From a virus: DNA of 32,719 nt. The notes beneath the pieces are model-generated. The model saw nothing but the letters and a program-made list of their open reading frames with translations. It made no database searches and was not told the origin of the DNA. The stretch spans positions 1-32,719 of IMG/VR virus record IMGVR_UViG_3300025127_000007; one strand, given 5' to 3'. Every line of letters starts with the position of its first letter. The stretch's first letter is position 1. The position numbers and the translations under genes are program-made. This document shows, one piece after another, positions 3,238 through 32,719 of the stretch.

Positions 3238-4005
3238 CTATCCTCCGTATGAACTAGATGGGCCGCGTAGCAAAATACCTTCTTCACCAAGACCAGCCTG
3301 ACCAAATCTTGCGCCCCTTGTTCTGCGCCTATCTCTTGTGAAAGCTGTTCTGCCTCTCGTGGCAAGAGGTACGTCATCTCTCTCTGGAGTTACCTCTGGT
3401 GTAACTTCTGGTGTAATATCTGGCCTTTGTGGTTGACCCTCTGCTGTTGCCGCTGCCGTAGGTGACGCAACGCTAAAAGTTCCTGACTCTCCTCTTGCGC
3501 CAACAACTCTGCTGCTTGAATCGGTGATTGGATCGCCACCCTCTATAAGTCTATCAAGAATTGTTTTTGCAGATCTTTGACCTATAACATTTAAAACATT
3601 GAGTGCTGCGCTACCAACACCTGGCACTGACACTCTGCCTGCTGGTAACTGTCCAATGTTTGTGCGTTTTGCCAAATCCCCAAGTTGCTCTTTTGATATA
3701 TCTGTTCTGCCAGCTAGTCTTGCCGATGCCACTTGCCCAAAGCCACTTGAACCAATCGTTGCCAAAACATCTCCTGGTGCAAGACCACGTTCAGGCGCAC
3801 GCCGCATGCTTCTTTCTTCAGCAGTAAGGTTCATTCCCCCAACTGGATTTCTGCCACGTTGCTGCTGTTGTCTTACCATTGCCTGTGCGGCATCATCTCG
3901 AAAGCGTTGCCCTTGTGTGCGCCTTGGTGCGCCAGTAGCCCTTATAGGTTGTGTACCGCCTATGTTCGTAGCACCACCGCTTGTGCCTGATCCTCCACTA
4001 CCCAT
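3238..4005 (-). CDS. Gly/Arg/Pro-rich low-complexity protein, unknown function (possible virion or ejected protein)
   Basis: 255-aa ORF. N-terminus MGSGGSGTSGGATNIGG; internal ITPEVTPEVTPE repeat (about 3384..3422); C-terminal RDRRRTRGARFG; start overlaps the upstream gene by 8 nt. Confidence 0.6.
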   Translation of the reverse strand: MGSGGSGTSGGATNIGGTQPIRATGAPRRTQGQRFRDDAAQAMVRQQQQRGRNPVGGMNLTAEERSMRRAPERGLAPGDVLATIGSSGFGQVASARLAGRTDISKEQLGDLAKRTNIGQLPAGRVSVPGVGSAALNVLNVIGQRSAKTILDRLIEGGDPITDSSSRVVGARGESGTFSVASPTAAATAEGQPQRPDITPEVTPEVTPERDDVPLATRGRTAFTRDRRRTRGARFGQAGLGEEGILLRGPSSSYGG

Positions 4006-4396
4006 TATGGCTCTCCTTCAGTTTGTACCAGCCTATCTTGCCAGTTTCAGTGCGCAACCATAACGCTTTGTCATGACCGCTTTGCACCAGATGATCTCGT
4101 ATATGTCGCATCATACGCGCTATGCTACTCTTTCCTTGCAAACAAATAAAGTCTACTATCCAAACTGTGCCTCCCCCGCCATCAAACCCATCCACAGGAA
4201 ACTTATTTTCTAGCAGGTAATCTTGCACTTGCCACTCGTTTGGGAATCCCCAAGTTGCAAAGCCTTCATCCATCAGCACATACTGATCTAGGCGCATCGG
4301 TTGCTCTACAAAGTTCTCAAACTCTTCCTCCCCCCACCACTGGTGGTACTCGCTACTTTCTACCAACTCTAGTATATGCTCTCTTTCGTCCATCAT
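3998..4396 (-). CDS. HlyC/TAAT-like (RTX-toxin-activating lysine acyltransferase family) protein
   Basis: 132 aa. The segments EYHQWWG, QYVLMDEGFATWGF and GGGTVWIVDFICLQG line up with HlyC GHVSWLW, QYVLL...CSWA and GDRKWFIDWIAPFG, which contain the catalytic His/Asp dyad. ATGA overlap with the terL stop. Confidence 0.5.
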   Translation of the reverse strand: MMDEREHILELVESSEYHQWWGEEEFENFVEQPMRLDQYVLMDEGFATWGFPNEWQVQDYLLENKFPVDGFDGGGGTVWIVDFICLQGKSSIARMMRHIRDHLVQSGHDKALWLRTETGKIGWYKLKESHNG

Positions 4397-9116: not shown

Positions 9117-9402
9117 GAATACCGTAGACCATTTTGCACGTTGGACATTGTATCCTGCCATCAAGAAAGGTTTTGCAAGCAACACACATATCTGCGGCCT
9201 GGAGCCGTGCAAACCTACCGTCACCAGCCTGGATGTTGTATGACTTTACCTTTCCCAAGCCATTACATTCATCACAGTGGTCTTGTACAACCTCACCAGC
9301 CTCAAACCAGCTACGCCTGCGCACCCAGCCAGAGCCGTCACAAGTCTTGCATTTGCTCTCTGAAAAAATCATTTGGCGCAACCTCTCCATCTGTAGCCAC
9401 AA
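9100..9402 (-). CDS. DnaJ-type zinc-finger protein (four CxxC pairs)
   Basis: CKTCDGSGWV and CDECNGLGKV (CxxCxGxG twice), plus CVACK and CPTCK. Start is ambiguous (ATG at 9402, 9390 or 9372); overlaps both neighbouring genes. Confidence 0.6.
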   Translation of the reverse strand: MWLQMERLRQMIFSESKCKTCDGSGWVRRRSWFEAGEVVQDHCDECNGLGKVKSYNIQAGDGRFARLQAADMCVACKTFLDGRIQCPTCKMVYGIHEQEK

Positions 9403-9541
9403 ATATCTTGCCCATAGTTTGTGGGCTTGGACGCCTACTGCCTGACAATAATCTATTTATAGCTGCCCGACTCATGCCAGCACGCCGCGCCAGCTTGGCT
9501 TGGCTCATCTTATTTTTTTCTAAATATTCTTCCAAAGTCAT
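9338..9541 (-). CDS. Small HTH (XRE-like) DNA-binding regulator
   Basis: 67 aa from ATG 9541: MTLEEYLEKNKMSQAKLARRAGMSRAAINRLLSGSRRPSPQTMGKI. First gene of the leftward cassette, divergent from 9622..10476. Confidence 0.65.
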   Translation of the reverse strand: MTLEEYLEKNKMSQAKLARRAGMSRAAINRLLSGSRRPSPQTMGKIFVATDGEVAPNDFFREQMQDL

Positions 9542-9621
9542 ATTTTCTTGTATCACAGAGTTGACAGCCTGACAACAATTATGGTTAAAGTATGTTGACG
9601 ATACACAGAGAGTAACAGGAT
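9542..9621. promoter_or_regulatory. Divergent intergenic control region between the leftward cassette and the rightward middle genes
   Basis: TTGACA at 9561 and TTGACG at 9595; CACAGAG at 9554 and 9604; no convincing -10 elements by eye. Confidence 0.35.
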
Positions 9622-10476
9622 ATGCCACAGATACCAGAGTATAGAAAGTTTTTTGGCGCAAAGCATGACAGTGCATCAGGCGGGACACAGGAAAAGTGGG
9701 AATACGTATTGAAGATGTACGCTAGACATCTTGGCGTGTCCTTTCCAATGGCAGCTAGGCCTTGGTGTGGAATATGCGTTGAACATGGTGCATCAAGAGT
9801 TATCCTCGATGGTCAAGAGCTTCTAGCGGCTACACAAGAGGCCATGACCAAGTACAGGGATTACAGGCCGCGTGATTGGGATGACGGAAAAGACAGGGAA
9901 GAGTTTGAAGCCTTCCAAGAATACATGCCAGACATGATATTGTTTGCAGTAAACGCGCTGCAAAAGTTTTTCCAACAGGCAAACAGAGTCGAGGGCAACA
10001 AGCAAGAATGGCACAAAGAGCCTCAGATTGACGTACCAATTTTGTTGTATCGTGATTTTTTTGGCGCTGGCCTTCAAGTAGATTTGAAGTGTAAGCCACC
10101 GCTACGCAACCCAATCAAAAAAGATGGCACAAGAACCTGGCGCGTACCAAAGCCAGAGATCACCCCAACATGGCTACAGACTCAACAACAGTCTGTGTAT
10201 TGGAAAGCCAGTGGTGAGCCGCCAGCCTTGCTGTATGTGTCAGCGGCAGGCTATCACATAGCCACAGCAGAAAACTGTGAGCAACTTTCAGAGCAAAACT
10301 TAGAGCGTGCGTATCAAGAAGTTGTGCGCAGTTGGCTCATATCACAGAACTTACTCAAGGCGGCAAACGGTAACTGGCACGATTTAGCTGGTTTGGTCCA
10401 GCCAGATTTTAATGAAATAGCAAGGCGTCATGGGCCATCTATCGTAGACGTAGCTAAACAACTTTGGAGTTTCTAA
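9622..10476 (+). CDS. Possible YqaJ/lambda-Exo-like recombination exonuclease (PD-(D/E)XK)
   Basis: 284 aa, the largest rightward ORF. GAGLQVDLKCKPP resembles the YqaJ LEIKCP signature, with RDFFG upstream. Weak motif-level call. Confidence 0.35.
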   Translation: MPQIPEYRKFFGAKHDSASGGTQEKWEYVLKMYARHLGVSFPMAARPWCGICVEHGASRVILDGQELLAATQEAMTKYRDYRPRDWDDGKDREEFEAFQEYMPDMILFAVNALQKFFQQANRVEGNKQEWHKEPQIDVPILLYRDFFGAGLQVDLKCKPPLRNPIKKDGTRTWRVPKPEITPTWLQTQQQSVYWKASGEPPALLYVSAAGYHIATAENCEQLSEQNLERAYQEVVRSWLISQNLLKAANGNWHDLAGLVQPDFNEIARRHGPSIVDVAKQLWSF

Positions 10477-27015: not shown

Positions 27016-27528
27016 CTATCTATCCAACTCTTGTTGTCTGTATCTGTCTTGAAGATCAAAAAAGTCTTGTTGCTGCCTTATGCTTGCCGCCTGCCCCGCG
27101 CCGTCCAGAAGGGTTGTGTAAGCTGCTGTGCGGAACGCTGATGCCCTTGCGTTTCCAGCCGCACGCGCCATAGCTGCTTGTGCTAACTGCCCTGCTGTTT
27201 CAACATCACTCGCGTACTGTATGCGTAAAGCATCACGTTCCATAGCAAAGTATGAGTCAGCCAAAGCTAAGTAGGGGCTTCCTGATAACTCAACTCCAGA
27301 CGCTGCGGTGGCTACTACTTGCTGACCAGTAAGCCTCTCGTTTGCCCGTCTAAGGTTTGCTTCCTGATCTATTTTAGCTCTTTGCAGAACAACAGCTTCG
27401 TTTTCAGCAACCTGCGCATTGTATTCGGCAGTTTGCCTCGCGGCTCTTGCAGACGCTTGGTTTCCCTTAAATCCAAGTACAGTGCTGGCGGTTGTGGCTA
27501 CTGCGGCAACGGTTACTGGATCTACCAT
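27016..27528 (-). CDS. Internal virion protein (gp14-position)
   Basis: 170 aa, Ala/Gln-rich with an N-terminal hydrophobic stretch VTVAAVATTASTVLGF; by synteny. Confidence 0.5.
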   Translation of the reverse strand: MVDPVTVAAVATTASTVLGFKGNQASARAARQTAEYNAQVAENEAVVLQRAKIDQEANLRRANERLTGQQVVATAASGVELSGSPYLALADSYFAMERDALRIQYASDVETAGQLAQAAMARAAGNARASAFRTAAYTTLLDGAGQAASIRQQQDFFDLQDRYRQQELDR

Positions 27529-31859: not shown

Positions 31860-32719
31860 TTAGTCTGGGGTTTCATCACAGAAGATTTGAACAACCTTTG
31901 ACTCTTCCATGCGCACCGCTCCGATGCTCATGCAATAGTAAACTTGGGTTGCATATCCCTTGTCAGCACGTTCATCAATGCGTGCAGCAATGTCTTTACC
32001 GACACCAAGGGTCAAACCATCCTCAGCCCATGCAAAGCATGTTCTGATGTCGTTGCTGTCTACAGACAACCTATTGGTCATGATGAACTGGAAGCCCATA
32101 AAGGTATCCACATCACCCTGTACCAGAGCTTTGACTGTGTTGAAATCCGAGCTAGTAACCTGTGTTGTGCCAAGCAAATCTTCAATCTGCTTTGGCCCTA
32201 CAGCAATGTAGCGTGGGATTGATGGGTCAACATCATTGAGGTCCATCTTACGCTTTGCTTCTGTGAGCTTGGCGATAGTCAGGCCATCGTTTGATGAGGA
32301 TGAACCAACAGAGTTGGCTGTTGCATCCAGTGTTGCACTGCCAGATCCAGTCTCACCAGTAGAGGCTGTGCCTGTGGCGGCAGTAATAATCACATCGTCC
32401 ATCGCACGACCCATAGCAGCGGCTGCTGCCTGTGCATAAGATGATGTTGGATCAATAAGCATACGCACTTTGTCCTGATCGTCGATCAGATCTGCATACT
32501 CATAATCCGCTAGGGAAAGACGCCGCCTCGCATGAGGTGTGTCCATTTGTGGTGTATCGGCGTGACGGCTGCTACGCAGGGCAGCAGTTGCGACTCCGAT
32601 TTGGTCTATGAAGGCATTTTTACCAACAACATTCTCAATTCGCACCGCATCACGCAGACGAGAACCCATCTGCTGTGATAGCATCTGCACGTTTGCAGAA
32701 TACTGTTGCACAAATGCCG
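31860..32719 (-). CDS. Major capsid protein, body and 3' end (5' end runs off the window; true start is at 146 after circularisation)
   Basis: 283 aa in the track (GTG read as M). The pattern ...GKNAFIDQIG...HARRRLSLADYEYADLIDDQDKVRMLIDP...MGRAMDDVII parallels the layout of T7 gp10-type HK97-fold capsid proteins; follows the scaffold gene. Confidence 0.8.
   Translation of the reverse strand, partial: AFVQQYSANVQMLSQQMGSRLRDAVRIENVVGKNAFIDQIGVATAALRSSRHADTPQMDTPHARRRLSLADYEYADLIDDQDKVRMLIDPTSSYAQAAAAAMGRAMDDVIITAATGTASTGETGSGSATLDATANSVGSSSSNDGLTIAKLTEAKRKMDLNDVDPSIPRYIAVGPKQIEDLLGTTQVTSSDFNTVKALVQGDVDTFMGFQFIMTNRLSVDSNDIRTCFAWAEDGLTLGVGKDIAARIDERADKGYATQVYYCMSIGAVRMEESKVVQIFCDETPD
32593..32719. 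repeat. Terminal direct repeat, copy 2 (exact duplicate of 1..127)
   Basis: Same 127-nt string as 1..127. Confidence 0.97.

Follow-up and report, generated by a model that had tools for sequence, protein, structure and literature searches.

Short-tailed phages need small ejected proteins, whose chemistry is poorly understood, to pass protein and DNA across the outer membrane. In phage T7, two such proteins, gp6.7 and gp7.3, are encoded just upstream of the portal gene and are ejected at infection; gp6.7 belongs to the core and, with gp14, builds the outer-membrane channel, and gp7.3 is located in the tail channel and is the first to leave (PMC11784390). A second group of described systems is formed by the toxin-activating lysine-acyltransferases (TAATs), whose substrates act in an unfolded or disordered state; the receptor-binding domain of CdiA, for instance, is largely unstructured (PMC8510554). 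Their catalytic dyad is His24/Asp93 in ApxC and His37/Asp107 in CdiC, in which it is required (PMC8510554). Here we describe a gene that joins these two themes. It lies in a stretch of 32,719 nucleotides (nt) of viral DNA (IMG/VR record IMGVR_UViG_3300025127_000007, positions 1 to 32,719; hereafter the window), and it encodes a TAAT-like protein of 132 amino acids (aa) between the large terminase gene (terL) and two small low-complexity proteins, p255 and p69, that precede the portal. Our favoured reading, to which we give an even chance, is that this is an active, late TAAT-type acyltransferase that lipidates a phage virion protein, most likely p255, and so aids anchoring or insertion in the host envelope. 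Family membership, fold, the conserved dyad, purifying selection, the gene order and the repeated occurrence of TAAT genes within structural modules of phages that are not related are established by the analyses below.

The 132-aa product begins MMDEREHILELVESSEYHQWWGEEEFENFVEQPMRLDQYVLMDEGFATWGFPNEWQVQDYLLENKFPVDGFDGGGGTVWIVDFICLQGK and carries three motifs: EYHQWWG with His18, QYVLMDEGFATWGF, and GGGTVWIVDFICLQG with Asp82. An initial annotation, made from the sequence alone, had read these motifs at 3998-4396 as those of an HlyC-like TAAT, had named His18 and Asp82 as its candidate dyad and had suggested a profile search and a superposition on ApxC or HlyC as checks. The reading frame and its motifs are as described, on the minus strand, which had not been stated. 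Taken singly, the window protein speaks against the assignment: its match to the Pfam HlyC profile PF02794 (E = 6e-4, 20.1 bits) lies below the gathering score of 25, in an alignment that is full-length (residues 8-119 against profile positions 5-119 of 127). No PHROG match was obtained with it, and a phmmer search with this protein alone against PDB sequences found nothing. Eight close homologs were present in metagenomes, and all 6 full-length ones matched PF02794 (best E = 7e-12); a profile made from 6 sequences reached ApxC at E = 0.13 only, and the AlphaFold2 model built on the 6-sequence alignment was poor, with a predicted local distance difference test (pLDDT) score of 61.

These failures were resolved because an alignment of 74 relatives of the window TAAT (A3) was used; a profile search of 1.84 billion representative proteins had returned 91 relatives, mostly 125-155 aa long. 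PF02794 was matched by 71 of the 74 (best E = 1.8e-38), and the A3 profile matched the sequence of the ApxC crystal structure (4WHN) at E = 2.6e-32. With A3, AlphaFold2 produced a model with a pLDDT of 93.5 and a predicted template modelling (TM) score of 0.86. When this model was compared with the PDB by Foldseek, the top three matches were the 4WHN chains (E = 5e-6 to 1.5e-5, query-normalised TM 0.73-0.76, root-mean-square deviation 2.8-3.2 Å), followed by GNAT-like domains and acetyltransferases. Foldseek against BFVD gave viral proteins as best matches, one of them annotated HlyC; at rank 30 stood a weak fold match (E = 0.084, TM 0.46) to the 128-aa 'Host range protein' of the T7-like phage P694. 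Both in the A3 profile and in the weaker 6-sequence alignment, His18 and Asp82 align with the ApxC dyad, the Asp being that of the WFIDWIAP motif (for the residues of ApxC we relied on PMC8510554 and on aligning the 4WHN sequence). In family, fold and alignment of the dyad residues, the results support the initial annotation.

The predicted active site is also conserved where the remainder of the protein is not. Among 36 distinct viral-contig homologs, which diverge to ~25-35% identity, His18 and Asp82 were 100% conserved and Arg115 97%. The ratio of nonsynonymous to synonymous substitution rates was 0.06-0.25 against five close relatives and one more distant relative. The 132-aa protein is therefore a true TAAT-superfamily member by profile and predicted fold, and selection maintains it. 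Relatives sought with the motifs of this clade in one genome each of 185,579 bacterial and archaeal species were not found.

We then considered the genes around it. As the initial annotation described, the gene is preceded by terL and followed by the two low-complexity proteins and the portal gene, and this context is conserved. The TAAT ATG overlaps the terL stop codon as ATGA; of the translational coupling to terL that had been claimed, this overlap stands, and it makes the coupling itself plausible. The final 8 nt of the TAAT gene in turn overlap the start of the p255 gene, and an AAGGAG Shine-Dalgarno sequence precedes the p255 ATG. A relative with 55% identity keeps the order small terminase (terS)-terL-TAAT-290 aa-70 aa-portal-Bbp19-like-scaffold-capsid. 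Scanning IMG/VR with the TAAT alignment yielded 57 loci, and a p255 homolog directly followed the TAAT in every one of them that reached far enough. Within the window's clade, the loci that span the whole region have p255, then p69, then the portal gene, and p69 was found upstream of the portal in nearly all that extend that far. In a second arrangement (L006/L033 type) the TAAT-p255 pair lies between terS and terL. Retrieval from the p255 side gave 53 loci, 43 of them with enough upstream DNA, and in 38 of these 43 the TAAT gene was immediately upstream of p255.

The protein p255 starts MGSGGSGTSGG, contains a (TPEV)n repeat and carries a C-terminal basic motif, RRRTRGARFGQAG; it had no Pfam or PHROG match. 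Its homologs are low-complexity proteins of 105-349 aa. In an alignment of 23 diverse homologs (A4), only five columns were invariant, namely Met1, Gly2, Arg233, Gly235 and Gly238, the last three within the C-terminal RRRTRGxRxGQAG, and the (TPEV)n repeat was nearly so. The most hydrophobic stretch of p255, the Gly/Ala-rich VPGVGSAALNVLNVI (residues 127-141), is conserved among the long forms. The smaller p69 reads MSFLTPRIPAPPPPPEPP...RRRKGRGSTIVAGALG...TLLG, and its family follows the pattern MSF(L/M)xP(K/R)(I/V), poly-Pro, (R/K)4G(R/A)GST(I/Q)VAG and a TLLG end.

In the window as in T7, the genes for two small proteins immediately precede that of the portal. An N-terminus that is cationic or rich in Pro, combined with a basic motif at the C-terminus, was found here as it is there, a likeness of position and architecture only. 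T7 gp7.3 runs MGKKVKKAVKKV..., an acidic stretch rich in Pro, Glu and Val, and then GRKKARAGGKKS; quoted at greater length, it reads MGKKVKKAVKKVTKSVKKVVKEG..., a VEVP...VDVPEKEV stretch and GRKKARAGGKKSLSV.... Short p255 homologs are built like it, with MGGAPKKIVKAVSKV... (also given as MGGAPKKIVKAVSKVGKG...), TPEVTPEV and RGKRSGQGG. T7 gp6.7 begins MCFSPKIKTPK, and p69 begins MSFLTPRIPAPP. T7 differs in that it has no TAAT. The place equivalent to that of the TAAT, between genes 6.7 and 7.3, is taken in T7 by gp7 ('host range', 133 aa; L120 831-1232). The possibility that gp7 is a hidden TAAT was rejected on sequence: it had no Pfam match, an hhalign probability of 0.3% and no PDB relative.

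From these observations the following sequence of events can be proposed. The TAAT would be a late product, expressed along with the packaging and head genes. The fatty acyl chain for a phage virion protein would come from a host acyl carrier, which by analogy with the rest of the family would be an acyl-acyl carrier protein (acyl-ACP). The likeliest substrate would be the disordered p255, which is encoded immediately downstream and shares with p69 the pre-portal position of gp7.3 and gp6.7. At the start of infection p255 would leave the particle, and its lipid would favour anchoring in the envelope of the host, or insertion there, in an action comparable to that of CdiC-lipidated CdiA and of acylated RTX toxins. 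Within this scheme, we infer the catalytic activity, the acyl donor, the substrate, the modified residue, the location of p255 in the virion and the role in entry.

Several findings weigh against this proposal. The nearest cultured relatives, the HTVC010P-type phages, have two phrog_831 proteins at the pre-portal place (in HTVC010P gp03, MGSIFKPKMPPLPP..., and gp04, MGGAVARIVRPSRP...; also Lederberg_23 and Lederberg_22) and no TAAT. Homology of p255 to T7 gp7.3 found no support, with an hhalign probability of 0.35% for A4 and a BLASTP result of E = 1.3 or no alignment; the gp7.3 profile PF11653 had no match in p255 homologs, and homology of p255 to HTVC010P gp04 was not supported either. Likewise, p69 did not prove to be a member of the gp6.7 family (PF17570), since it belongs to phrog_831 and gp6.7 to phrog_1391 (gp7.3 is phrog_1320). 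Because homology to gp7.3 and gp6.7 could not be shown, p255 and p69 are treated as positional and architectural analogues of these proteins, not as family members, and their virion location is therefore read only from position and sequence architecture. The window enzyme, at 132 aa, is a short form with ~35-40 residues fewer than the 168-170 resolved in the ApxC chains, and donor or chain-length specificity may therefore differ. In the lineage L153-157 the order is terS-p255-terL-129 aa-77 aa-portal with no local TAAT, and for this reason the TAAT-p255 association is strong but not obligate. One member of that lineage (L155 5147-5536) has a 129-aa Cys-rich open reading frame (ORF) of unassigned family between terL and a gp6.7-like 77-aa protein (MGFMSPRSPGP...).

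The acceptor residue is a further difficulty. Neither an adjacent RTX protoxin nor a conserved Gly-Lys site in p255, the marks of a classical TAAT substrate, was found; no RTX or other Pfam domain was detected in p255 and p69. No lysine column was conserved among the 23 p255 homologs of A4. The window p255 itself has 31 Arg and 3 Lys (K105, K113, K147), and each Lys is substituted in close relatives. This bias towards Arg is extreme in p255 of the window's clade; distant homologs have about as many Lys as Arg (L001: 25 K, 23 R). In p69, too, a conserved acceptor lysine was not found, the Lys being replaced by Arg in relatives. Of the label 'lysine acyltransferase' given at first, the family assignment therefore stands, and the lysine is doubtful for p255.

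Since the window's own neighbourhood is one of several in which such genes occur, we also considered TAAT genes in other phages. A megablast search of the region, and tblastn searches with the window TAAT, p255 and p69, found no match in 50,697 phage records; nor did tblastn with ApxC residues 20-143. Only the family consensus was productive: tblastn with the A3 consensus identified seven cultured marine phages (E = 2e-10 to 3e-5), the pelagiphages HTVC026P, 103P, 104P, 111P, 112P and 115P and Roseobacter phage CRP-235, all of whose records already annotate a 'toxin-activating lysine-acyltransferase'. These TAATs belong to the same extended family as the window protein but are distant from it, and the proteins encoded downstream differ. 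In five of the seven, the gene lies in the structural module, directly upstream of a virion-type protein that starts with Met-Gly (MG). It overlaps or abuts the start of a J-like central tail fibre gene (phrog_31) in HTVC026P, 111P and 112P, and it precedes large structural-module proteins in HTVC115P and CRP-235. Uncultured phages add further arrangements: terL-TAAT-Gly-rich 320 aa-fatty-acid desaturase-portal (L008), SU10-type portal-73 aa-TAAT-Gly/Ser-rich 388 aa (L010), portal-TAAT-330 aa-363 aa-major head protein (L064), and a TAAT in the tail/lysis region (L172). Altogether, 8 of 9 independent phage lineages have the TAAT gene inside a structural module, where a low-complexity protein usually comes next. 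The desaturase of L008, an unrelated phage contig, is at 9361-10158 (PF00487), after the TAAT and the Gly-rich protein and before the portal, which suggests that the acyl chain itself is also modified by some phages.

The start of the downstream protein offers a possible solution to the lack of a conserved lysine. The protein directly after the TAAT starts MG[GSA] in 4 of the 9 independent lineages, the downstream proteins being otherwise unrelated: p255 (MGSGG..., MGGAPKK...), the J-like tail proteins (MGGVVKSVVKAV..., MGGIIKKIIKPI..., MGGIVEAIVNVV...), HTVC115P gp45 and relatives (MGAISRVFKG..., MGSIFKKIKR...) and CRP-235 gp29 and relatives (MGGGGGDTT...). Good Shine-Dalgarno sequences back these starts. 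Among ~250 other Shine-Dalgarno-preceded ORFs of the same loci, MG occurred in ~4% and MG[GSA] in ~0.4%, so that 4 of 9 is well above expectation in what is a post hoc test. The N-termini concerned can be free of Lys, as are the first 100 residues of the window p255 and the first 40 of HTVC112P gp47. Met-Gly is a good substrate of methionine aminopeptidase, and the mature proteins would therefore start with Gly. We tentatively raise the idea, doubtful as we hold it to be, that phage TAATs acylate the N-terminal alpha-amine of Gly (rarely Ser) on the adjacent downstream virion protein after Met removal. The acceptors may then be the gp7.3-like protein here, the J-like tail-tip protein in sipho-pelagiphages, and gp45 and gp29 in phages of the HTVC115P and CRP-235 types. 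Further MG-starting large structural proteins are encoded a few genes past the TAAT, in CRP-235 (gp25, L070 8032-10312), L172 (5365-6360) and L112 (3727 onward), where they read MGFWSDTFGGGNSF..., MGYGWDDFMEDLGF... and MGLNFGDVALNL...; these may be additional substrates, or their starts may be coincidental.

This idea of N-terminal acylation is kept off our main claim for several reasons. An MG start is shared by relatives that have no TAAT (HTVC010P gp03 and gp04, T7 gp7.3), so that a strict co-occurrence of MG and TAAT was rejected, and lambda J has one as well. Four CRP-235-type loci start MSGGGG instead, and five lineages have no MG neighbour. In addition, all characterised TAATs acylate lysine, and we know of none that acts on an alpha-amine.

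The proposal that p255 is the substrate has to be weighed against other functions for the same enzyme. One, which we consider unlikely, is that it acylates a host target, such as an envelope protein, a lipoprotein, or an LPS (lipopolysaccharide)-associated or defence protein, in the service of host takeover, superinfection exclusion or lysis timing; the initial annotation had likewise allowed for a host protein. The two remaining cultured phages, HTVC103P and HTVC104P, are in line with this and count against lipidation of a virion protein: their TAAT is among early/replication genes, by the gene for single-stranded DNA-binding protein (before it in HTVC103P), and the next protein is not MG-initiated. 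A substrate has, moreover, been demonstrated for no phage TAAT. The gene in the window's clade, however, is plausibly coupled to terL and overlaps that of p255, and its place between packaging and portal genes is fixed in ~90 uncultured viral contigs. The structural-module positions in 8 of the 9 lineages likewise argue for a virion protein, and characterised TAATs (HlyC, CdiC) modify the product of the adjacent gene (PMC8510554).

It is rather improbable, in our estimate, that the enzyme is instead an N-terminal or short-chain (e.g. acetyl) transferase that uses acyl-coenzyme A (acyl-CoA) and caps or neutralises the neighbour's N-terminus as Rim-type GNATs do. The TAAT fold is related to that of GNATs, and GNAT-like domains and acetyltransferases were the next-best fold matches; the absence of ~35-40 residues relative to ApxC might leave a smaller acyl pocket or ACP interface; and among the internal virion proteins of the same genome there is a true GNAT (PF13420). 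The profile nevertheless assigns the protein to PF02794/ApxC and not to acetyltransferase families, the TAAT-typical His/Asp dyad is invariant, and the fatty-acid desaturase encoded beside the L008 pair indicates a chemistry of long-chain lipids.

In many phage homologs Tyr takes the place of the catalytic His (an R-Y motif), among them those of HTVC111P (L071), HTVC026P (L068), HTVC115P (L072), HTVC112P (L073) and several A3 members, and the TAAT of HTVC112P has Glu for the catalytic Asp. These variants may represent either a variant active site or lost catalysis in those lineages. Catalysis is perhaps dispensable there, as it would be if the protein were a TAAT-derived non-catalytic assembly chaperone that binds the disordered N-terminus of p255 (in siphophages, the tail-tip protein) and delivers it to the portal or tail during morphogenesis, a role in which T7 gp7 (133 aa), placed between 6.7 and 7.3, and the T7-like 'host range protein' with its weak fold match to the TAAT model (E = 0.084) could be fitted; we think this very unlikely, since His18, Asp82 and Arg115 are essentially invariant in the window's clade despite ~25-35% identity, T7 gp7 is without profile similarity to TAATs, and ApxC H24A and CdiC H37A keep partial activity (PMC8510554), so that a change of His to Tyr need not mean lost catalysis.

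Lipidation of p255 by an active TAAT thus remains the reading we prefer, and the genome in which it is set is that of a marine podophage (Table 1). The first and last 127 nt of the window are identical; the contig is therefore circularly closed and represents a complete genome of ~32.6 kb. Its T7-like structural module comprises the major head protein, tail tubular proteins A and B, a gp14-like protein, large internal virion proteins and a tail fibre. Its portal is closely related to those of HTVC010P-type pelagiphages, with 57-59% identity. The GC content is 46.5% vs 34.5% in HTVC010P, and for this reason the host is probably not SAR11. The GNAT-domain ORF (PF13420 E = 8.8e-8, 32.8 bits, gathering score 24.3) also matches phrog_308 'internal virion protein' and phrog_4470 'acyl-CoA N-acyltransferase'; its start codon, called as TTG, is uncertain. 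Together with the TAAT, this ORF gives the phage two acyltransferase-fold genes in its structural operon.

Table 1. Features of the window discussed in the text, in order of position.
Feature	Position	Strand	Basis or remark
Terminal repeat	1-127 and 32593-32719		First 127 nt identical to last 127 nt
Portal (head-tail connector), 528 aa	1435..3021	minus	PF12236 E = 8.7e-148
p69, small Pro-rich protein, 69 aa	3026..3235	minus	phrog_831 E = 1.2e-9; positional analogue of T7 gp6.7
p255, low-complexity Gly/Arg-rich protein, 255 aa	3238..4005	minus	Candidate substrate; positional analogue of T7 gp7.3
Short TAAT-family (HlyC/ApxC-like) acyltransferase, 132 aa	3998..4396	minus	Pfam, profile, predicted fold, dyad
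Large terminase subunit (terL), 432 aa	4393..5691	minus	PF03237 Terminase_6N E = 6.9e-10; phrog_2 E = 7.9e-37
Small terminase subunit (terS), 138 aa	5679..6095	minus	PF20901 Sf6_terminase E = 1.6e-6; phrog_1482
gp14-like gene	27016-27528		In the T7-like structural module
GNAT acetyltransferase domain ORF, 150 aa	27528-27980	minus	At the position of T7 gp13; immediately precedes the gp14-like gene
Major head protein ORF	31860-32711		Probably runs on across the circular junction

Part of this picture is already known. The enzyme family is described, and its presence in phage genomes is known at the level of annotation, where it has never been analysed; because TAAT genes are annotated in the seven cultured phages, the mere presence of a TAAT in a phage is not new. 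The sole mention of phage HlyC-like genes that we found in the literature is a figure legend in bioRxiv 10.1101/2019.12.14.876532. We found no report of lipidated or acylated phage virion or ejection proteins, which agrees with the earlier remark that acylation of phage structural proteins is undescribed. Nor did we find a description of the module of TAAT and downstream protein in this large uncultured clade of HTVC010P-related podophages, of TAAT genes placed repeatedly in front of virion-protein genes in phages that are unrelated, or of the hypothesis that viruses encode the lipidation of their ejected or tail-tip proteins. If the proposal is true, it would amount to a new principle of phage entry, in which the virus itself encodes the means to place a lipid anchor on an ejected or tail-tip protein, and viral proteins would join RTX toxins and CdiA as substrates of the TAAT family. 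It would also explain a gene that recurs in abundant marine phage groups under the misleading annotation 'toxin-activating'. With homologs in seven cultured phages, the hypothesis is directly testable.

If the N-terminal Gly were the acceptor, the result would be a bacterial-virus parallel to the N-myristoylation of eukaryotic viruses and a new specificity for the enzyme family. Several non-enveloped eukaryotic viruses carry N-myristoylated entry peptides, such as picornavirus VP4, reovirus mu1N and polyomavirus VP2. The likeness is conceptual: an internal or ejected capsid protein, an N-terminal Met-Gly, a fatty acid, and contact with a host membrane at entry. There, the modification is made by the host N-myristoyltransferase with myristoyl-CoA, whereas here the enzyme would be a virus-encoded TAAT, with an N-terminal specificity that is hypothetical.

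The comparison with the TAATs of RTX systems (HlyC, ApxC, CyaC) is closer. The phage protein belongs to the same superfamily by profile and predicted fold, with the aligned His/Asp dyad and the conserved Arg, and its gene likewise adjoins, and is co-transcribed with, that of the candidate substrate. It differs in that the gene is viral and part of a morphogenesis operon, and in that the neighbour p255 is not an RTX protein. CdiC, too, has its differences, being cellular, ~160 aa or longer, and acting on Lys of a giant secreted filament, whereas the candidate phage substrate, unlike CdiA, is small or medium-sized and lysine-poor. It is nonetheless the closest functional model for the phage enzyme: a TAAT co-opted for a non-RTX, largely unstructured substrate encoded next door, on which the lipid promotes engagement of the outer membrane of the target cell (PMC8510554).

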